Shown: positions 39,724 to 55,346 of the stretch, piece by piece
Layout: every line of letters begins with the position of its first letter
Position numbering within the stretch: the stretch's first letter is position 1
Source of the DNA: Spirochaetia bacterium
GTDB lineage: Bacteria; Spirochaetota; Spirochaetia; SZUA-6; Bin103
DNA: 64,000 bases
Reading direction: 5' to 3'
NCBI GenBank assembly: GCA_965198005.1
Contig: CBDAOI010000001.1
Coordinates: 160,001 to 224,000, forward strand
Program-made: the position numbers and the translations under genes
Notes under the pieces: generated by a model
The model's database searches: none
Told to the model about the DNA's origin: nothing
The model's input: the letters and a program-made list of their open reading frames with translations, nothing else

Positions 39724-41514
39724 TCAGAACCCCATCTCCCGCTTCAGATCCTGATCGATCCAGAGACGCGAGTAGATCAGAATACGGTCCATGTCGCCGG
39801 GGTCGGCCTCGCCGTTGTAGCCCTTCACCCACGGCCAGAACGCGTTGAACTGTGGCACGCGGGCGCCCCAGATCGGAACGTGCTGACGGTTGAGATAGTC
39901 GGAGGCCTCCCTGGAGAGTCGCTGGCGCTCTTCCAACGTGGTGGCCGCCTGCACGCGCCTGACCATCTCGTCGTAGCCCGGATCGTCGAGTCTGCGGGGC
40001 GGGTCGTTTGTCCAGTATAGGAGCTGACCCGTCGGATTCCATTCGTATCCGGAAGCCCCCATGCGGACGTCGAAGTCCTTCGCGCGGCGCCGAGCCATCA
40101 CTACGGGGCCCTCAAGATACGAGATCGTTACGTCGATGCCGATCTCTCGCCAGCCCGCCGCCAGGAGCTCATTCCAGCCTTGGTCGCCCCACGTTGGTGT
40201 AGAGATTACCTCCATCTCGAAGCGGGTCCCGTCGGCGCCGCGCGGTAAGCCGGCTTCGTCGAGCAGCCTCTCGGCCTCTGCCGGATTGTAGGAATACGCC
40301 GCCTTGAGGTCCGCCGGCCAGTCCTCGTAGCGAGTCATGTAGGGATACAGGGCTCGCCCCAACCACCCCTGTGGCTGGGTGATTGCATGGCCCTTGAAGT
40401 AGGTTTCGCCCCAGCCCTCGATGTCGAGGGCCAACTGCAGAGCGCGGCGCACGCGGACGTCGTCGAAGGGCGGCTTGTTCGGGTTGACGACGGGGGACGT
40501 CTCAGACCGATAGGAGTAGCCCTCGACGACGATGCCAGGGTTGGTGCGTTGCAGGGTCTCCACCTGGTCGATCGACGTAAGCTGTGCGCTTCCCTGGAAG
40601 CCGACGAAATCGACCTTTGCCGAGCGCAAGGCGGCAAGACGCGTCTGGGGCTCGGACATCACCAGTGCGGTGATGGTGTCGACATAGGGCAGCCGGTTCT
40701 GGGGGAACTTCTCGTCGAAGCCCCAGTAGCCGGGAGCCTTGTCCCAGGTGATGGAGCTGCCTTCCACCCAGTCCGTGAGCTCAAAGGGTCCGGTGCCTAC
40801 CAGGTTCTGCCAATCGCCGATATCGACTCCGGTCCCCGCCCGAATCACCTCCGGCGGATAGATGAACAGGACGTTCTGCGTCAGGAGCGTCTTGACCGCG
40901 TCCAGGTTCAGCTCCGCCAGCTTGAAGACGACGCTGTTGCCCTGGGCCGTTACGGAGGTGATGCCGAGGTTGTCCGCGGACGACACGGCGGCGACGCCTT
41001 CCGGCACCTCGGTGAAGCCGCTACCCAACCCGAGGAAGCGGTGGAAGTTGAACTCCACGTCCTTGGCGGTGAGCGCGCGACCGTTCATCGGCGCCTTGTC
41101 ATGCCAGTTCACGCCCTGGCGGATGTGAAAAACGATGGTCGTGGGGTCGGGCTGCTCCCAGCGCTCGGCCAGGCGTCCGACGATGATGTCGTCGGGCAGG
41201 TAGGTGGTGCGGAAGTCGAACTTGTCGCGACTGACGCCCCAGTCACCGATACCGAGCTTCTCCACCACGAGGCCTGCCACGATCGCGGGCGGGTGGCGGT
41301 AGTACGTGTCCACCGTTGGCGGATCCCCGCGTAGCGTGACGGTGAGCGTGCCGCCGTACTCTGGGGCGGTGACCATCTTTCCGGTGGTCGGGTCTGTCAC
41401 CATCGGCTTCTCGGTCGCCGCAGCTGCCCCTTCGCCTTCTCCGCTGGCAAACGTAACGGTAGCCACCAGCGCGAGCGCCAGTGTCAACAAACCGATTTTG
41501 GAAACGTAGTTCAT
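39724..41514 (-). CDS. Family-5 ABC substrate-binding protein, module 5
   Basis: Complete SBP5 motifs and signal peptide. Confidence 0.93.
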   Translation of the reverse strand: MNYVSKIGLLTLALALVATVTFASGEGEGAAAATEKPMVTDPTTGKMVTAPEYGGTLTVTLRGDPPTVDTYYRHPPAIVAGLVVEKLGIGDWGVSRDKFDFRTTYLPDDIIVGRLAERWEQPDPTTIVFHIRQGVNWHDKAPMNGRALTAKDVEFNFHRFLGLGSGFTEVPEGVAAVSSADNLGITSVTAQGNSVVFKLAELNLDAVKTLLTQNVLFIYPPEVIRAGTGVDIGDWQNLVGTGPFELTDWVEGSSITWDKAPGYWGFDEKFPQNRLPYVDTITALVMSEPQTRLAALRSAKVDFVGFQGSAQLTSIDQVETLQRTNPGIVVEGYSYRSETSPVVNPNKPPFDDVRVRRALQLALDIEGWGETYFKGHAITQPQGWLGRALYPYMTRYEDWPADLKAAYSYNPAEAERLLDEAGLPRGADGTRFEMEVISTPTWGDQGWNELLAAGWREIGIDVTISYLEGPVVMARRRAKDFDVRMGASGYEWNPTGQLLYWTNDPPRRLDDPGYDEMVRRVQAATTLEERQRLSREASDYLNRQHVPIWGARVPQFNAFWPWVKGYNGEADPGDMDRILIYSRLWIDQDLKREMGF

Positions 41515-41925
41515 GATGAGAACCTCCGATTCTCGACTCTCGTTCGAGAGCATGTACTGATCCTGGTGCCGGCCCCTCGTCTGCTCTCGTGGCCTGTCTG
41601 CCGCTTTGTGTTGTCTGCGGCGCAGGCGGTTCCAACGAGGACGACAACGTAACTTCGCGATGACCCCGGGGGGCGATCAGGCGCAACCGTTGATCGCGTC
41701 CCGCGGTGGATTACGGCTTCACCGGCACCTCCTGTATGCGTACCGGTCAGACGCAGGTCGACGCCGGTCGGCGTGAACGGGTCTGGCCGGTGGATTGTTC
41801 TGCGGTCCGGCAACGCCGGGGGTGATTGCTGACTGAGGACCAAGCAGGGCGGTGGCCGACGCGCGGGGGCGTCGGTTCACGGTGCCGGGCGCTCGGAGTG
41901 TGACGTGACAGTTGGAGCTTACTGC
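41515..41925 (-). repeat. Long upstream leader shared with 33775-34180 and (internally deleted) 31294-31455
   Basis: ccggcaacgccgggggtgattgctgactg.ggaccaagcagggcggtggcc occurs in all three. Confidence 0.85.
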
Positions 41926-42050
41926 CGGCCCTGGTGCCTCTGGCGGTTGCAGCACCAGGCGCGCCCACTCGCCGGCGTTCCCTGGGCTGCAAGCCCGTCC
42001 GCCTGCCGCGCTCCCGAATCGACCGCTTCGAGGGGCGACTCGAGTATTGG
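41926..42050 (+). pseudogene. Uma2 5' remnant
   Basis: GCKPVRLPRSRIDRFEGRLEYW, as in the gene starting at 27122. Confidence 0.75.
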
Positions 42051-42517
42051 CACGGCTGCGGTCGCCGGCAAGGGCGCGGGCGGTCCGCATGCCGGTTCGG
42101 CGATGGACCGAGCCGGCGCCACGGATAACTACGGCGGTGGTGAAGGCGACGGCGTGCGCGCTTTCGCGTACGGGGCGATCAGCCGGAGCGGTTAGTTGTT
42201 TCTCGGTTCGAAAATGTTGTGTGTGTGGGGGGGGGGGACTCCTCACCATAAGCAAGCGCGCCGCGAGCTGATTTTCAGCAAATCTCGGCGAGCGGCTGTC
42301 AGGGGAACAGAGTGTCATAAGCGTTGACGTGTTATAAGTCACTCAAGCCCTCCGCAGGTGAGGCACAGCCATACCCAGATGTAGTCGCGATGTCGCGATT
42401 GACTGCATCCCACCCTATCATAACCTCCGCTCCCGTGGACGTCAACCACGAATGATGGCCTGAAGAGACAGTCTGGGGGGCCCACCATTTGCCAACCCCC
42501 GCCGCGAAAGGATTTCC

Positions 42518-42664
42518 GGGGGGGGGGGGGGGGATGGGCAAGGGTAGGACACGCCGGCTGCGCTGCCGCTAACCGGTGGCAGCGCTGAGTAGCGTTTTCA
42601 GCCATCTTTTGCATCCGTTCAAACCTGAGACTCTTAGTATACCACCTCTGCGGCAACCAATCAA
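42518..42664 (-). promoter_or_regulatory. Repeated promoter/leader element, diverged copy C, with G16 tract
   Basis: Minus strand TTGATT-17-TATACT; accggtggcag.gctg and catccgttcaa shared with copies B and D. Confidence 0.65.
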
Positions 42665-43078
42665 CAGAAAAAAACAGGCGAATTGAAGGTTTCTTGAGAT
42701 TTCTTTCAGGCAGCCGCGGCAGCCGAGAGCCCCTCGCGGCGCCGACTCGGGCGCATCGCCCCTCCGGAGCCGTCATTCGCCGGCGATGTGGCCGTCCCCA
42801 GGCCGTTCACCGTCCACGTCGGCCTCACAGCGGCCCGCCGCTGAGGGCCTTCCAGCCCCTCGGGGGTAAGCCTGGGGTACCCCCTGCAACACCCGTCAAC
42901 GCCGATTCCCGGCACCGCTGGCTCCGTATTGACCGCGCCGCCACCGCCCGCAGCCCAGCCTGGTCGGGTCGCAGCCACCTCCAGGACCAGCTACAGGAGT
43001 CTGTCGGATTGCGACAGACTCCTAGCGGTCGGACGGGATGGGCCAAAAGCGGCGCCCCGGCGGTTTTGGGGCGCTAGG

Positions 43079-43332
43079 CGACGGCAGACCTCCTCGAGCG
43101 TCAAGCCGCCGCTCCGTCAGTCGCCGCGCGCGGGGGGAATGGGCCGTTGCTGCGGCCGTCGCGGCGCTCCGGAGGTGCAACCGCGAGCCGCTCGTCGGTT
43201 GAGTTCGAGGCTGCTCGGACAGGAGCGGCAGCACGAGCGCCGCCGCGGCGACGATCTCGGCACTCGGACCCGTTCAGGGCCGGCATTCACCGCCGATTGG
43301 CCGGCCCCCTGAGGGCCTTCCAAACCCAGGGA
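43079..43332. repeat. About 250-bp direct repeat flanking the IS1634 remnant (second copy 44379-44670)
   Basis: cgacggcagacctcctcgagcg...ccttccaaacccagggag at both sites, with a few mismatches and one indel. Confidence 0.9.
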
Positions 43333-43333
43333 G

Positions 43334-44378
43334 GTGCTCACCGGGGCGCGCATCCGTGAAGACCTGCAGGGCGTCGACGGGCTGCGCTGGATCACGACCT
43401 TGCGCGTGCCTACCATCCGCAAGCTGATTGCGAACGGTCAGGTGGCGCAGTCGATGTTCGACCAGCGTGATCTGGCCGAGATCAGCTCACCCGACTTCCC
43501 CCGCGAGCGGCTGATCGTGTGCCGCAACCCGGTGTTGGCTGACCAACGCCACCGCAAGCGGCTGGAGTTGCTGGCCGCCACCGAGGACAAGCTGGCCCCC
43601 ATCGTGAGAGCCACGCAGCGTGCCAAAGATCCGCTGCGCGGCGCCGCTGAGATCGGTATGCGGGTGGGCAAGGTGATCAATCAGCACAAGGTGAGCAAGC
43701 ATTTCATCACCACGATCACTGAGGACTCATTCACCTATGAACGTGACCTCGAGAAGATCGCTGCCGAAGAAGAACTGGACGGGCTGTACATCGTCCGCTC
43801 CAACGTCGAGCCGGAGTTGTTCGACGCCGATCAGACGGTACGCGCGTACAAGGACCTGTCCAAGGTAGAGCGCGCCTTCCGCAGTATGAAGACGGTGGAT
43901 CTGAAGGTGCGCCCGATCTACCACCGGCGCGCTGACCGGGTACGGGCGCACGTACTGTTGTGCATGCTGGCCTACTACGTGGAGTGGCACATGCGCAGCG
44001 AGTTGGCGCCGGTGCTGTTCGATGACCACGATCCGGAGGCGGCACAGCAGCAACGGTCATCGGTGGTGCGACCGGCACAGCGGTCGCCCCGGCGGCACAG
44101 AAGAAGGCGGCCAGGAAGCGCACCGCTGACGATCTGCCGGTGCACAGTTTTCGCAGCCTGATGAACGACTTGGGGACTCTGACGGTCAACAAGATGCAAC
44201 TTGCCAAGGCAGGGAGCACGTTCTTGCTGCCGACGCAGCCGACACCGGTGCAGCAGCGCTGCTTCGAGCTACTGGGGGTATCGCCCCGGATGTAGCCACG
44301 CACGGCACATGCCATTTTGAGCGTAACTATATGACCCCTCGTGACTTACCAAGCATTTGGCTCTGGAACTTCGGGCTA
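43334..44378 (+). mobile_element. IS1634-family element remnant (5' truncated transposase, frameshift at about 44090, stop at 44295)
   Basis: ERLIVCRNP, DGLYIVRS, YKDLSKVERAFRSMKT.DL..RPIYH...RVRAHVLLCMLAYY; probable right end ggaacttcgggcta. Confidence 0.88.
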
Positions 44379-44670
44379 CGACGGCAGACCTCCTCGAGCG
44401 TCGAGCCGCTGCTCCGTCAGTCGCCGCACGCGGGGGGAGGGGCCGTTGCTGCGGCCGTCGCGGCGCTCCGGAGGTGCAACCGCGAGCCGCTCGTCGGTTG
44501 AGTTCGAGGCTGCTCGGACAGGAGCGGCAGCACGAGCGCCGCCGCGGCGACGATCTCGGCACTCGGACCCGTTCAGGGCCGGCATTCACCGCCGATTGGC
44601 CGGCAGCGGGCCGCTCGGCGTCCGAGTCGGCCTCATAGCGGCCCCCTGACGGCCTTCCAAACCCAGGGAG

Positions 44671-46586
44671 GGCGCGGTAGGAACGCCGGTTACCCGGCGC
44701 CCCCCGCACAGATCCGGACGTGGTCGTTAAACCATCCGGCTCCTACCTTCGGTGGTTGACGGCAAATCGCCGGTCCGGCCATGAGTGTACGATTCGGGGT
44801 TGGGGCCACAGCTTGATGCTGATCGCCAGCATCCAAGCCCAGGAGAATCGGTCCTTCTGGGACCTCCGGCGTAGAATCTTTACCCAGATTCCTCGCAGAC
44901 GCCACACGAATCGGTGCAGATAGCGGTAGCTGGTGGGTACCGCGTAGTAGTTGAGCCATCCGCGCAGTACCCGTCCCAGCCAGCGCCCGGTTTCCATCAC
45001 GTCATCATGCATTCGTCTGCGGAGCTCGATCTTGATCCTCTTCAGCGTACGATTCATCCGCTTCCGAATTGGCTTCCGCCCCAGCCCGAAGCGTCCTTTC
45101 CTGTCCTTCCTGCAATAATGCGTGAAACCCAGAAAGTCGAACGTCTCCGGTCGCCCTTCCCCACGTGCTCGGCGGTTCCTTTCGGCATACCGTCCAAACT
45201 CGAGGAGTCGGGTCTTGTCGGCGTTCAGTTCCAGCTCGAAGCCTCTGAATCGCTCCTTCAGTTCCCGCAGGAAGCGTTCCGCATCGTCACGATGCTCGAA
45301 CCCGGCGACATAGTCATCTGCGTAGCGCACTATGATCATGTCTCCGCGCGCCTCCTGCGGCCGCCACTTCTTGGTGACCCACAGGTCCAACACGTAGTGC
45401 AAGTATATATTCGCGAGCATCGGTGAAATCACCGACCCTTGCGCTGTACCCCGCCCCGCGTCGATCTGTCGGCCTTCTTCCAGTACCCCAGCGCGCAGCC
45501 ACTTCTTTATCAGCCGCAGCACCCGCCGATCTCCAATCCGATGCTCCAGGAATCTGATCAACCAGTCCCGCGAGATCGTGTCGAAGTAGGCGCGAATGTC
45601 CGCGTCCAATATCCAGTTCACTTCGCGCCGTTCGATGGCGTAGGCCAGTGCGTCCAACGCATCGTGTGCCCCGCGCCCCGGTCGAAACCCATAGCTGATC
45701 CCGAGAAATTCCTCCTCATAGATCGGTGTCAGGATCACATCCACCACGGCCTTCTGGACGATCTTGTCCTCCAGCGCGGCCACCCCCAGCGGTCGTGTGC
45801 CTCCGTCCGGCTTGTCGATGTTGACCCGCCGTACCGGGGTCGCTCGGTACGCTCCTGTGTGTACTCGCCGGTGCAGGTCGTGCAAGCGCACTTCCAACCC
45901 CGTCTCGTACTCCCGCCACGTCATCCCGTCCACCCCCGGGGCCGCTTCACGCTTCAGCGCGTAATAGGCCACCCGCAGCGCTTCCGGCGTCACGTGGTGC
46001 AGCAGCGCAGTGAGTTTCTCCTGCGGTTCTCTCTTTACGAATTGCCGTATCCGCTCGGCCGCCTGTGTCACGGTTGCCCGACTCTGCGTCCGGCCCGTGC
46101 TTTGACCTTGCGAATTCCCGTTGGTCATGGGCCTTCGCTCCACCGTCTCCGCAGTCGCTTGCGCTCCCTTGTTCGCCGGCTTCGCCGCTACTATGCCCAT
46201 GTCCGACTCCTTCGGGTCGTTCATCTTTGGTCCAGCCTCACGCCTTCCCTCCGCGGTCCCGGCGACGACTCGCCGGGACGACCCGAAGACCTCCCAGGTC
46301 CCGGTATATGACGTACGCACGTGCCTGAGTTCTTCGACGCCGTGGAGCCCGGTCGATCCTCACCATACTGGCTCGACCGGTGTTGCCTTCGACCGAGTAC
46401 AGAGTCTCGGCACTCCAGATGTCGTATTTTGCGGCGCTCCATAACTCTGCCCGCACGCACCGCTGCCGACGCTTCGCCTGCACCCTCGCAGGTGCCAACG
46501 CACGGCTCGCGGAGAAACGTGGATTGGCTGCTCCTTCGTTCCGAGGGACTTTCACCCTCTGTCATATGCCAGTTTGCCTGGCGCTC
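44671..46586 (-). mobile_element. Group II intron (IIB-like, resembles bacterial class E)
   Basis: 5' GAGCGCCAGGCAAACTGGCAT; domain V GAGCCGGATG...ACGTCCGGATC; domain VI ending CCTACCGCGCC; RT ORF inside. Confidence 0.9.
44743..46224 (-). CDS. ltrA: Group II intron reverse transcriptase/maturase, no endonuclease domain (start uncertain)
   Basis: APGVDG, KPDGGTRPLG, SYGFRPGR, GTAQGSVISPMLANIYLH, RYADD, FDFLGF and GWLNYY. Confidence 0.95.
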   Translation of the reverse strand: MNDPKESDMGIVAAKPANKGAQATAETVERRPMTNGNSQGQSTGRTQSRATVTQAAERIRQFVKREPQEKLTALLHHVTPEALRVAYYALKREAAPGVDGMTWREYETGLEVRLHDLHRRVHTGAYRATPVRRVNIDKPDGGTRPLGVAALEDKIVQKAVVDVILTPIYEEEFLGISYGFRPGRGAHDALDALAYAIERREVNWILDADIRAYFDTISRDWLIRFLEHRIGDRRVLRLIKKWLRAGVLEEGRQIDAGRGTAQGSVISPMLANIYLHYVLDLWVTKKWRPQEARGDMIIVRYADDYVAGFEHRDDAERFLRELKERFRGFELELNADKTRLLEFGRYAERNRRARGEGRPETFDFLGFTHYCRKDRKGRFGLGRKPIRKRMNRTLKRIKIELRRRMHDDVMETGRWLGRVLRGWLNYYAVPTSYRYLHRFVWRLRGIWVKILRRRSQKDRFSWAWMLAISIKLWPQPRIVHSWPDRRFAVNHRR

Positions 46587-46786
46587 ATACCCCAGGGCAC
46601 CCCCCGGAATCCCGCAAGTGCCCGTCAAAGCCGTTTCCCACCACCGCTGACACCGCTGACACCGCTGACACGCCGCGCGGTCCGCCACCCGGCTCCCGTG
46701 TGCCACCTCGAACATCAATCCGAGACCGGCACTGATCAGCGCTTGCAGGTCAGGAACGACGTGAGGTGCGGGCTGCAGAGCCCCCC

Positions 46787-48476: not shown

Positions 48477-48479
48477 CCT

Positions 48480-48770
48480 GTCACCTCCCGAGATTGTGGA
48501 GCTCGGCTGCCACGATGTCGTTCCACCCCTGTACTGGTGCTCCGGTGCTCCGGTGCTCCTGCCTGTCATCGTACCGGGGCACATGCACCTTCCCACCTGG
48601 CACTACTCCTCACTGGGTATCCATCGCGGCACTCCTACCGGGGCACATGTCCCCCCCGGGCGCTCTACGGCGCGGGGGGCTCAAGGTTGCTCCCGGTAGG
48701 CTGCCTTGCCCGCCTGGGATTCTAGCAGTCCCTGGCGAACTATCTAATCTCTATAAAGGGTACAGGGGGT
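48480..48770 (-). ncRNA. IS110 non-coding left end, candidate bridge RNA
   Basis: About 290 nt of non-coding sequence upstream of the recombinase; duplicated internal motif; segments matching the element ends. Confidence 0.6.
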
Positions 48771-48779
48771 ATGATGCAC

Positions 48780-49445
48780 CGGTCGCGTCACAGCGAACCG
48801 GTCACTGCGCTGCCTGTCATCGTGACGCTTCATGACCATCCGTCGAACCCCAAGTGAGGCACGCTAGCATAGGCGCGGCGCGCCGTCAACGACTCGTGGG
48901 GGTCACCGGGGTGAGCGAAGGTCACCGGCAACCCGTCACTGCGCTGACTGTCATCATGGCGCTTCATCGGCATCCGTCGCCCCAAGCCAAGCACGCTAGC
49001 ATAGGCGCGGCGCGCCTGTCAACGACTCGGCGGTCACCGAACGTCACCGCCAACCGGTCACTGCGCTGACTGTCGTCATGGCGCGTCATCATCGATCCGT
49101 CGAACCCCAAGCGAGGCAAGCTTGCTATGGACGCGACCACCCTGTCAACGACTCGGACGTCACCGAGGTCACCGACCGTGACCGCCAACCGGCCACTGCG
49201 CTGGCTGTCGTCATGGCGCTCGATCCGCATCTGATCAACCCGAATCACCATCTTCCACGGGCGACTCAGAAAAAGTCAACAGCGATTCTGGCCTGGTGCA
49301 CCTTGCCACGCCAAGCTCTGTGATCGGCTGAACTTGCGCACCTCAGCCCTTCACTGCGCTGGCGGTCGTCGTGGCGCATCATCCGCATTCGCCGAACTCC
49401 TAACGGTGCACTCTCTCGCGAGCGCGGCCACCCTGTCAACAGCGC
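48780..49445 (-). repeat. Tandem array of 5 degenerate units (122-158 bp spacing), each with a -35-like TTGAC
   Basis: cactgcgctg core at 48803, 48937, 49059, 49194 and 49352; gtcaac at the right edge of each unit. Confidence 0.85.
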
Positions 49446-49589
49446 CGACCCGTGGATCCCGTGGACCCGTGGACCCGTGGACCCGTGGCTGTGCGCGAAC
49501 GAAGTTCGCGCCGGAGACCGGCACGTCCCGCGGTATCACACCGGGTGAACGGTGACCTCCACCCGTGGCGCCATCCCTGGCCCCCCGGG

Positions 49590-49902
49590 TGGCATGCAGC
49601 TCCCGGCCCGCCTGGAGCGATGGAAGGACGCTCAGAAGGAGAGGGGCGAGAGGTTCCAGGGTTTCGATTCGGTTGTCGTGGACAACGAGGACGGCGACGG
49701 CGACCGGAAACCGGCCGAGGTTTTGCTGGTGTTGGAGGTTCTGGTCAACGGTGACGAACACATCGAACTCGGTCGCAGCCCTGCGGAGCAGCTCGCCGTT
49801 GCGGACGCCTGCCCAGCCCTTCCGTGGCACGGTCTGCACCTCAAGGCCTTCCAGGAGCCGAGCACACTGACGCGGGACCGACTCATTGAGCAGAATGTGC
49901 AC
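49590..49902 (-). CDS. DUF5615 PIN-like toxin (3' end disrupted; ORF reads through to 49351)
   Basis: ILLNESVP, GWAGVRNGELL and FDVFVTVDQNL. Confidence 0.75.
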
Positions 49903-50110
49903 GGTCTATGAGCAGTTCGCCGGCAAGCTCGAGCACCTCCTTGGCCTGTCGGCGGGACACCGAGGGGAAGGAATCGAGGAACTTGTCCAGGCTGTCGCCG
50001 GCTTCGAGATGGTCCCACAGACTCTGGACGCGTACCCGTGTGCCGGCGAATACGGGCGTTCCTGACATGATCTCTGAGTCCTGGATAACCAAGCCGGAGA
50101 GGCTACGCAT
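49883..50110 (-). CDS. DUF433 antitoxin
   Basis: DSEIMSGTPVFAGTRV...HLEAGDSLDKFLDSFPSV. Confidence 0.88.
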   Translation of the reverse strand: MRSLSGLVIQDSEIMSGTPVFAGTRVRVQSLWDHLEAGDSLDKFLDSFPSVSRRQAKEVLELAGELLIDRAHSAQ

Positions 50111-50470
50111 CTGTGCTGGCTCCCTTGATACGAGGATAAGGCAATCTCGGTGTTGGTGGAAGAAGAACGTTGACCGCTCTGAGGTTTCAGATCCACCGCA
50201 CGGGAACAGCGATTGCGGACTCTGCCGCGGCCGATGAAGCGGCGACGCCACCGTGATCCGCGCCGGCACCAGCGGCCAACCGTCACTAGCGGTGCGCCCG
50301 CGGCATCAGCACAATGGCGATACCTGCGATCCGGCAAAAGGGCCCACTGGCCGATTCAGAACGTGTCCGAAGGCCCCTTCGGCGCGGGCAGGCCGCGTCT
50401 CGGCGATCACCTGGCAGAGTCGCGGCCGCCGTTCAGACGAATGCTCCCCCATCACCGATTGTACGTGAGC

Positions 50471-53544: not shown

Positions 53545-55346
53545 CTAATAACCCATTGCTTCCTTCAGCTCACTATCAACCCAGAGGCGGGTCATGATGA
53601 GACTATCCTCCTGGGGTCCCAACATCGTTTCACCGTTATAGCCTATGACCCATGGCTGGAGCGCCCACCACACTGGACTTTTAGGACCCCATATCTGCCA
53701 TTGCTTCTCTATAGTGTACATATCTGCCTCTCTAATCAGCCTCTGCTGCTCCTCAAGGGTAGTAGCGAGTTGGGCGGCTTCAATCTTGGAGTCCATCACA
53801 GGGTCCTGGTGTCCAATGACGCGGTTCCAAATTGAATCAGCATCCGAGTGAAACCAGCCTACCATCGAGAGAGGGTCAAAAGTTTGGAAACCCGCAATGG
53901 AACTCATCATGCCTTCAAAAGTATCCGAGGATACCCTCTCGTTAATTTCCCCGCCGGTATATACATCAATCTCAAGATCGACGCCAATCTCAGCCCAGTA
54001 GGAGCGAGCTATTTCTGAATAGCCTAGATCATAGACGTCGCGGAAGTGCAGGATGGTCTTGAATCTAATGCCGTCCGCGCCGCGCGGATATCCAGCCGCA
54101 TCAAGCAACGCTTCTGCCCTTGCCGGGTCATACATATAGCCTTTCTTGACCTCTTCGGGCCACTCTTCAAATGGGATGTAATACCCTGGCACCCCTACCA
54201 TCCCCTGAGGTGTCGCATTTGCCTGACCCTTAAAGAAGGTATTGTTAAAGGTCTCGAGGTCCAGTGCCATCTGCATTGCCTTGCGCACCCGGATGTCGTC
54301 AAAGGGCGGCTTGCTCGCGACAAGAGCATAAGAAACACCATTCGACCGCCACCACTGCTTGTGCAGCACGATTTCGGGGTTGGTCCGCTGGAGGCTCTCT
54401 GCCTGATCAATAGTAGATATCACACCCCCTGAAGGGCCTCTGAGATCAAGCTTGGCTGAGCGTAGTGCCGCCATAAGTGTTGCTTCCTCTGGAATAAACA
54501 GGTGCATTAACTCGTCAACGTAGGGCAAGCGGTTCTGCGGGTACTTTTCGTCATAGCCCCAGTAGTCAGGATTTTTGGTCCGGGTGAGCTCTCCTCGACC
54601 AATTCAGTCAGCATAAAGGGCCCGGTGCCGACCACGTTCCTCCAATCCCTAACGTCCCCGTGTTCCTTGATTACCTCGGGGGGCATTATGTAAACAGATT
54701 GATCGATGAGGATAGACCACAGCGCAGGGAGGTATGGCTCCTTCAGCTTACAAACAACCGTCCATTTGTCGGTGGCCTCTACCGATTCGAATGGTATAGC
54801 GACGAATCCGACACCAAACATAGGAGGAGCAGGTTCGGTGAAGCCGCTGCCCAGACCCAACATACGGTGAAAGTTGTATTCGACGTCATAGGCAGTCAGC
54901 TCCCGACCGTTCATCGGTGGCTTATCATGCCAGCGAACGCCCTTGCGGATGTGGAAGACATAGGTTGTGTCGTCAAGCACTTCCCAGCTTTCAGCCAGCC
55001 TCCCTGTCATGTAAGACACAGGGGTCGGGCCCGAAAAGTCCCATTCGTCTCTATCTATCCCCCAGTTGCCGATACCTAGCTTCTCTACGACGCCCGTCAG
55101 TTGAGGGTCCAACCAGGCGAAATAGGGGTCACTACCCCACGAACCTAGGGCTTTGGTACTGTAGGTCAATGTCCCGCCGTACTGTGGCGCCACCACCACC
55201 TTGCCGGTGGTGGGGTCGGTCACCATTTCCTTCTCCATGGCGGCTGCCGGCTCCTCTTCCCCGGACGGGCTTGCCCACAGGCCGGTTGCGGTCAGGACGA
55301 GACCGAACAGTACCGCGAGGATCTTGCGAAAGATTGCGTAATGCAT
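53545..55346 (-). pseudogene. Family-5 SBP, module 6, frameshifted at about 54585
   Basis: N-half (55346-54590) and C-half (TKNPDYWG...EAMGY) are in different frames. Confidence 0.85.

Follow-up and report, generated by a model that had tools for sequence, protein, structure and literature searches.

The closest described counterparts of the array analysed here are the promoter VNTRs of Mycobacterium tuberculosis, in which head-to-tail copies of a promoter-bearing unit, variable in number, precede a gene, and for which it has been argued that more copies lead to more initiation. A second group, the MIRUs (mycobacterial interspersed repetitive units), are dispersed intergenic tandem repeats with a small frame oriented as the neighbouring gene and are reported to insert at start codons and to couple translation at -4 nt (PMC12548453). 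As regards mobile elements, the IS110-family members IS621 (PMC11208160) and ISPpu10 (bioRxiv 10.64898/2026.03.19.712850) are reported to be guided by a bridge RNA and to target repeated intergenic sequences.

The locus considered here lies in a 64,000-nt stretch of a Spirochaetia genome (contig CBDAOI010000001.1, positions 160,001 to 224,000; hereafter the window) and shares features with each of these systems. Its array has the head-to-tail arrangement, the position upstream of a gene and the variable copy number of the M. tuberculosis VNTRs, but the unit of about 127 nt also carries the start of a leader peptide, a single unit family is found at about 50 paralogous operons of one genome in up to 7 copies, and a poly-C tract and a shared leader follow. 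The units are dispersed, intergenic and provided with a gene-oriented small frame like the MIRUs, but they carry a putative promoter, are situated about 500 nt upstream of the gene and display no sign of mobility of their own. The IS110 element adjoining the array has in common with IS621 and ISPpu10 a DEDD recombinase, a long non-coding left end upstream of the gene and orientation-specific insertion into one short recurring multi-copy sequence. In contrast to the targets reported for these elements, that sequence is a homopolymeric C tract in operon leaders and not a REP-type palindrome; the element also has a long region after the recombinase gene, of which more than 600 nt are shared between copies, and its bridge RNA is only predicted. 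In the main texts of the open-access literature, no description was found of stacked promoter-uORF arrays or of a poly-C-targeting IS110.

The array consists of five head-to-tail units on the minus strand at 48770-49445, three of them good and two degenerate (Table 1). A repeat search of the window finds a 73-nt family with four copies at 48768, 48902, 49024 and 49159 (66-81% identity to the reference copy; start-to-start spacings 134, 122 and 135); the fifth copy, at 49351, is weaker and comes from a 78-nt family. There are exactly three occurrences of GTCAACGACTCG, a MAFFT alignment of the five units gives a mean column identity of 67% with CAGCGCAGTG invariant, and the 22-nt core is matched four times when up to 3 mismatches are allowed, while 100 shuffles give no match. 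Repeat search and alignment thus bear out the five tandem units and the spacings of a preliminary description made from the sequence, and the extent given there, 48780-49445, needs correction only at the 3′ edge, which is at 48770 and is followed by a CCCCC remnant. All five units have the minus-strand TTGAC(A/G/T) noted in that description, and the accompanying TGC-TAGCGT-type -10, with TGCTAGCGT 17-18 nt downstream of TTGAC, is present in units 1 and 2. The small reading frame of unit 1 starts with ATGGTCATGAAG at 48839/48833 (MVMKRHDDRQRSDRFAVTRPVHH) and enters the C tract. Units 4 and 5 are only partial hits of a profile HMM built from the three best units; at other loci the unit 4 variant opens arrays or comes after their first unit, and the unit 5 variant, together with a preceding conserved hairpin-rich region, opens 10 of the 24 arrays with at least three units.

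Table 1 Features of the array and its surroundings in window coordinates
Feature	Position	Strand	Details
Unit 5, first-unit variant	49329..49445	-	TTGACA ... GAGAGT
Unit 4, variant	49171..49328	-	TTGACT; unit profile matched by 3′ half (uORF part) only
Unit 3	49036..49170	-	TTGACA; AAGCTT-type -10
Unit 2	48914..49035	-	TTGACA 49022-49017; 18-nt spacer; TGC-TAGCGT
Unit 1, last (gene-proximal)	48770..48913	-	-35 TTGACG 48889-48884; 17-nt spacer ending TGC; -10 TAGCGT 48866-48861
Poly-C remnant CCCCC	48765..48769	-	3′ edge of array; IS110 insertion point
IS110 non-coding left end, 288 nt	48477..48764	-	starts TGTACCCTTTATAGAG
23-nt insertion private to the window IS110 copy	48562..48584 (ambiguous by ~2 nt)	-	holds most of the 14-nt match
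IS110-family recombinase gene, 420 aa	47214..48476	-	DEDD_Tnp_IS110 PF01548 2.4e-34; Transposase_20 PF02371 1.3e-15
Group II intron	44671..46586	-	RF02005 169.5 bits, E 3e-50; RT ORF 44743-46320, RVT_1 1.7e-34
Two promoter-uORF-C-run modules of other sequence families	42227..42994	-	each ends in a C tract
Copy C module	C17 tract 42514-42530; copy C motif 42566-42587	-	
228-nt module	42227-42453; C12 tract 42233-42244	-	TTGACG-N17-TATGAT promoter-like site; frame MTLCSPDSRSPRFAENQLAA...
Shared leader	41554-42232	-	precedes the window's next same-strand SBP gene
SBP_bac_5 gene	39724-41553	-	followed by two Opp-type permease genes

A CRISPR array, already rejected in the preliminary description, is ruled out, as the units abut directly with no unique spacers between them and match no Rfam family; the sole CRISPR-DR match lies inside the recombinase gene at chance level (21.1 bits against a gathering score of 42, E 0.85). 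The array is absent from the Tandem Repeats Finder list, which reports only short repeats. Among these is the 8-nt repeat GACCCGTG, present five times at 49447-49488 immediately upstream of the array and differing in copy number between sister arrays, and it is upstream of this repeat that the hairpin-rich region of the 10 arrays is located. The minus strand at 49351-50269 further holds a DUF433 gene (2e-15) and then an ORF whose first 78 aa are DUF5615-like (22.6 bits; cut-off 23.8), which are probably a toxin-antitoxin pair; the second ORF extends into the first unit of the array, so the annotated 3′ part of that ORF is doubtful.

The array is ordinary for this genome and not a local oddity. 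Used as a query against its own 4.9-Mb assembly, it gives 63 matches; nhmmer with the three-unit profile finds 152 unit hits that make up 56 loci with 1-7 units each, and a profile of 90 full units finds 145 hits in 51 loci, of which 19 have one unit, 6 have two, 8 three, 6 four, 8 five, 2 six and 2 seven, counts that come from a four-contig, 90% complete assembly of a kind in which repeat arrays may be collapsed. Arrays sharing the same first-unit variant differ in size from 3 to 7 units. Within the genus, the repeat recurs in 6 of 10 further species, some of the same-genus genomes without it being fragmented and 76-88% complete, and was found in none of 13 sister-genus genomes and none of 17 genomes from other families of the order. 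A 16-nt unit pattern compared with public genome contigs gave, among the matches listed, single chance ones in unrelated phyla and is uninformative on distribution.

The genomic setting of the arrays is that of peptide-transporter operons. For 46 of the 56 arrays an SBP_bac_5-like gene lies within 2.5 kb downstream on the same strand, which upholds the earlier proposal that the units belong to the same family as the leaders of SBP genes, and behind most arrays about 500 nt of conserved sequence lead up to an ORF that encodes about 600 aa. The SBP_bac_5 (Opp/Dpp-type) family is extremely expanded in this genome: tblastn finds 168 loci of one family, mutually 25-55% identical, in the 4.9-Mb assembly, and a unit or array precedes 46 of them within 2.5 kb on the same strand. 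A 7-unit array in a relative likewise precedes a leader and an SBP gene. The best-matching array in the closest relative was considered as the orthologous IS-empty site and rejected, being a paralogue with a leader and SBP gene of its own. Elsewhere in the window, at 53545-55346 on the minus strand, an SBP_bac_5 gene appears as two overlapping ORFs of 279 and 327 aa and is probably frameshifted.

The leaders themselves are modular, composed of one or more promoter-uORF modules, a C tract and a constant part, as judged from the frames of an anchor search that read into C-runs. The anchor search found 49 leaders, 46 of them with a run of at least six C (6-28), and in 43 of these 46 an ATG-started frame enters the run, whose codons would accordingly be those of proline. 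At least six sequence families can be told apart among the frames, including the unit type (M.MKRHDD.QRSDRLAVT.PVH) and the copy C type (..TQ[HR]CHRLAA.QPA); the QR[SC][DH]RLA motif common to both is in keeping with the likeness between the unit core and leader copy C that had been pointed out before. At IS-free loci the last unit ends in ...GACCGGTGCATCATA, followed by the C-run and then ACTTTTTCAAACCGAGAAACAACTAACCGC. In the constant part, a second mini-ORF, MILKEPHARAA, overlaps a GC hairpin followed by TTTT that was seen by eye, and this terminator-like hairpin was not called by a terminator scan. The leader modules in front of the window's next SBP gene belong to families other than that of the units, and the 228-nt module among them recurs at about 22 other loci with 88-99% identity, in many leaders. 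The five-unit array is the homologous version of the module stacking seen there with unrelated modules.

A promoter is the element of the unit that its conservation most readily suggests. The 127-nt consensus reads GGTGACC..CCGAGTCGTTGACA, 18 nt ending in TGC, (T/A)AGC(G/T)T, about 27 nt and ATGAAGCGCCATGATGACAGTCAGCGCAGTGACCGGTTGGCGGTGAC. When 174 units, taken from this genome and from loci of six relatives, are compared, the columns of TTGAC show an entropy of about 0. In the -10 hexamer entropy is low only at A2 (0.27) and T6 (0.29) and runs from 0.8 to 1.5 at the other four positions; the G of the TG in front of the hexamer is again low (0.18). Promoter-critical bases and the ATG are thus what the units keep best, and the entropy pattern of the -10 is the one that a working promoter would impose. 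A sigma-70-type promoter is taken here as a TTGACA-like -35, a 16-18-nt spacer and a -10 whose second base is A and whose sixth is T; in the 117 units of the genome in which both hexamers could be aligned, TTGAC is found in 109, A2 together with T6 in 108, and both in 100, at 18-nt spacing and usually with TGC before the -10. A TANNNT -10 occurs in 46 of the 117, most internal units having AAGCTT instead. A strict scan of the E. coli type called none of the five window units; in a 7-unit sister array it called two units with TATCAT, against 0.2 expected. The stacked promoters that the preliminary description offered as one option fit this pattern. Structured small RNAs are not supported, the folds of four unit transcripts being no more stable than shuffled sequences (z 0.26, 0.45, 1.98 and 0.11) and Rfam models up to an E of 1 giving no match in the array.

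In RNA libraries the array is represented by contigs of four sponge metatranscriptome runs, which belong to four studies; some of these contigs join unit, C tract and leader, one running from the last unit into an IS-free leader; such contigs attest presence only and not starts, strand or level, and DNA can be in RNA libraries. The summed depth over the array is high, as expected from about 150 copies, and being pooled across copies and organisms it is not an expression level; parts that lack coverage are likewise uninformative. Two contig joints inside the array, one skipping 131 nt and one going back 196 nt, may come from paralogues and are therefore not evidence for length polymorphism.

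The most solid new result concerns the IS110 element, whose place beside the array is a site-specific insertion into the poly-C tract. The recombinase has the DEDD (RuvC-like) N-terminal and Transposase_20 C-terminal domains of the family. The left junction, fixed by aligning the IS110 copies, is CCCCC followed by TGTACCCTTTATAGAG, between 48765 and 48764 of the window. All eight IS110 left ends in the genome read CCCCC and then TGTACCC, behind six different flank types, and all eight flanks have IS-free paralogues in which the same flank continues as a C-run, with the SBP gene 250-650 nt further for seven of them and 907 nt in the single paralogue of the eighth; in the IS-free paralogues of the window junction the run has 7-28 C and is followed by ACTTTTTCAAACCGAG. 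In sister species, the five junction-bearing copies, found in four species, all adjoin a C-run, two further matches that are truncated and have no junction being left out of this count, and at least one of the flanks is a clear unit-type module. The same junction in independent copies, together with IS-free versions of the site, defines site-specific targeting on the left side, and the C-run at all left ends and in the paralogues of all eight flanks indicates that the target is the C tract and not the units. Of the 22 transposase matches, which fall in about 18 places, the one in the window alone has a profile-detected array within 1.6 kb, so the link of IS110 is to the C tract of leader modules of any family. 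The association between array and element that the preliminary description proposed hence holds through the poly-C tract that ends the promoter module and fails for the units, and the co-occurrence of the units expected there is found with SBP loci and not generally with IS110. In three IS-free leaders (G000:C4:368048, C4:2393493 and C4:2346635), TGTA(CCC), the first bases of the IS110 left end, is present inside the C tract, which may mark sites of past excision or variants of the target that the element prefers.

Elements of the IS110 group are characterized by a long non-coding left end, a right end that is short, and an RNA whose loops bind target and donor. The left end of the window copy has a promoter-like site, TAGATA-16-TAGAAT, at 48746-48719, and its RNA is predicted by a minimum-energy fold to form two long stem-loops, with C6 and G7 runs in the first that would fit guides for the C tract. 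The right end was sought and not found; the shared sequence continues past the gene through a group II intron and repeated modules, so no right-side target sequence can be read, and the sequence to the right of the window element differs from the expected continuation of the leader. All eight copies share one orientation relative to the upstream promoter module, which makes read-through from the promoter of the host module into the element likely; in the window this orientation puts first the non-coding end and then the recombinase gene downstream of the stack.

About 6.5 kb separate the array from the next same-strand SBP gene, and this mobile block, bounded by C tracts on both sides, comprises IS110, the group II intron, a DDE transposase remnant and the two leader modules. 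The intron is located in sequence common to the IS110 copies, and its boundaries are set by an intron-less joint, 44670 to 46587, in a contig from an RNA library. The genome contains at least 15 copies of the intron with 97-99.8% identity, several at the same position after IS110 copies, which suggests a homing site in or beside IS110. The transposase remnant (DDE_Tnp_1, 2.5e-06; 43334-44161, plus strand) is placed between two copies of a repeat of about 300 nt (44376-44670 and 43074-43305).

The array is best explained, and probably so on the pattern of its conservation, as a stack of 'promoter + leader-peptide start' modules of transporter leaders, in which unit number would tune the operon. 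Within the long leaders of the genus's greatly expanded Opp/Dpp-type operons, the module forms the 5′ part. The most likely function of the array would be to provide multiple transcription starts, with unit number as an evolvable setting: each unit would fire as a promoter and several RNA polymerases would be sent into one leader, and the unit number, different between sister arrays, would set a heritable level of expression. The stack may have arisen when GGTGAC motifs, which stand at either end of a unit, underwent unequal exchange. The bridge RNA of IS110 would be programmed for the C tract, and in the window the stack would have become separated from the next SBP operon by the nested mobile DNA between two C tracts. 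Against this explanation, the high identity of the units could result from recent duplication or gene conversion rather than from selection, and the invariant CAGCGCAGTG core is not accounted for by a promoter.

A broader role of the poly-C tract is conceivable and is put forward tentatively, namely that it is a built-in docking point at which exchangeable promoter-uORF modules join a constant leader in about 50 transporter operons, and that copies of a bridge-RNA-type IS110 programmed for the tract swap the stacks between operons or silence them reversibly. The element would then always enter in the way that places its guide RNA and recombinase under the stacked promoters of the host, and the window would be a possible case of swapping or silencing, with a 6.7-kb block, extending from IS110 into the first part of a leader, that is found at two loci and lies between two C tracts here. 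The second locus, on another contig, holds the block from 48769 to 42049 of the window at 95-99.8% identity; its left flank, its upstream module and its SBP gene (only 74% identical) are not those of the window. The duplicated block is consistent with IS-associated exchange of upstream modules, as a single case.

That the array is a neutral minisatellite seems rather unlikely, though the proposal has several observations to its credit. Only the last unit would then work as a promoter and leader-peptide start, and the copies upstream of it would have been left behind when paralogous leaders recombined unequally, gene conversion maintaining their likeness. The best -10 sequences indeed occur in last units, 18 of 32 of which have TTGACG-TGC-TAGCGT, compared with the prevalent TTGACA-TGC-AAGCTT of internal units (28/62); units across loci are 80-97% alike, and the first units of arrays are the most degenerate. 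However, internal units keep TTGAC in 54 of 57 aligned cases and the ATG in 60 of 62, the variation in the -10 is limited to positions at which promoters tolerate it, and unrelated promoter-uORF modules are stacked as well (42227-42994), which slippage alone does not explain.

It is improbable that the units are primarily operators that bind a regulator, with the stack titrating it or binding it cooperatively. GTGAC motifs recur every 13-14 nt across the unit junctions, GTCA-N6-TGAC surrounds the invariant core, the core and the conserved GGTGAC and CCGAGT blocks fall outside the promoter hexamers, and the palindromes GCAAGCTTGC and GCTAGC overlap the -10, all of which would suit an operator. 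The arrays have no associated regulator gene, however, and the conserved blocks are also within the small reading frame and the 5′ UTR; regulator binding would moreover be compatible with promoter function and may add to it.

A functional coupling of the array to IS110, with the units as recombination targets or as a source of transcripts or guides for the recombinase, is quite improbable, even though the array points into the IS110 left end and the shared orientation of the copies makes read-through likely. Unit 1 and the left end do share 14 identical nt, which speaks for such a coupling: in the whole window CTGCCTGTCATCGT is found at 48559 and 48810 only, with no occurrence expected. Most of this match, however, is within a 23-nt insertion that is absent from the four other IS110 copies covering the stretch, one of which is only 80% identical in protein, the remainder being native IS110 sequence. 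The insertion is made up of a 13-14-nt copy of the left-end segment 48637-48650, 65 nt away, and 10 nt identical to unit 1, and is probably templated filler copied from nearby DNA after the element had landed, though the match may also be due to chance. Its location in the apical loop of the second predicted stem-loop and the 47 nt between the matched site in unit 1 and the insertion point further oppose a role of the match as a guide, and the scarcity of transposase matches near arrays and the insertion into the C tract instead of a unit disfavour the coupling as a whole.

Finally, that the units individually encode small proteins (about 45 aa for internal units) or structured small RNAs is highly improbable, since, although the ATG is kept in 136 of 145 units, mean entropy at the three codon positions (0.52, 0.41 and 0.58 for codons 2-16 of the unit frame) has the order expected of coding sequence and QR[SC][DH]RLA is common to the units and the divergent copy C, that codon signal is weak and does not decide coding, the shared motif is conserved also as DNA, unit length varies from 122 to 135 nt and that of the consensus, 127 nt, is not divisible by 3, so that the C-terminal part and stop of internal frames differ between units, and fold z-scores of 0.1 to 2.0 with no Rfam match provide nothing for an RNA.

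If, as in the favoured explanation of stacked promoter modules, unit number sets promoter strength, the arrays would constitute a simple heritable dial on dozens of nutrient-uptake operons in the genus and, if true, would show with unusual clarity how the copy number of promoters regulates genes in nature, going further than the mycobacterial examples, which concern single genes. An IS110 lineage aimed at a leader homopolymer would extend the known targets of bridge-RNA recombinases and would offer a natural system in which to study host-promoter use and possible rearrangement of regulatory modules by such elements. For annotation, the long spurious ORFs over arrays and leaders should not be called genes, and the array should be labelled neither a CRISPR nor an IS110 accessory.

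A second tandem-repeat family of leaders is found elsewhere in the genome (G000:C1:19900-21300), where three to four tandem units of about 350 nt lie upstream of another SBP gene; the unit contains the insertion-site sequence of the intron, GGGGGGTACCCTGGGGTAT/CTCCCTGGGTTTGGAAGG.
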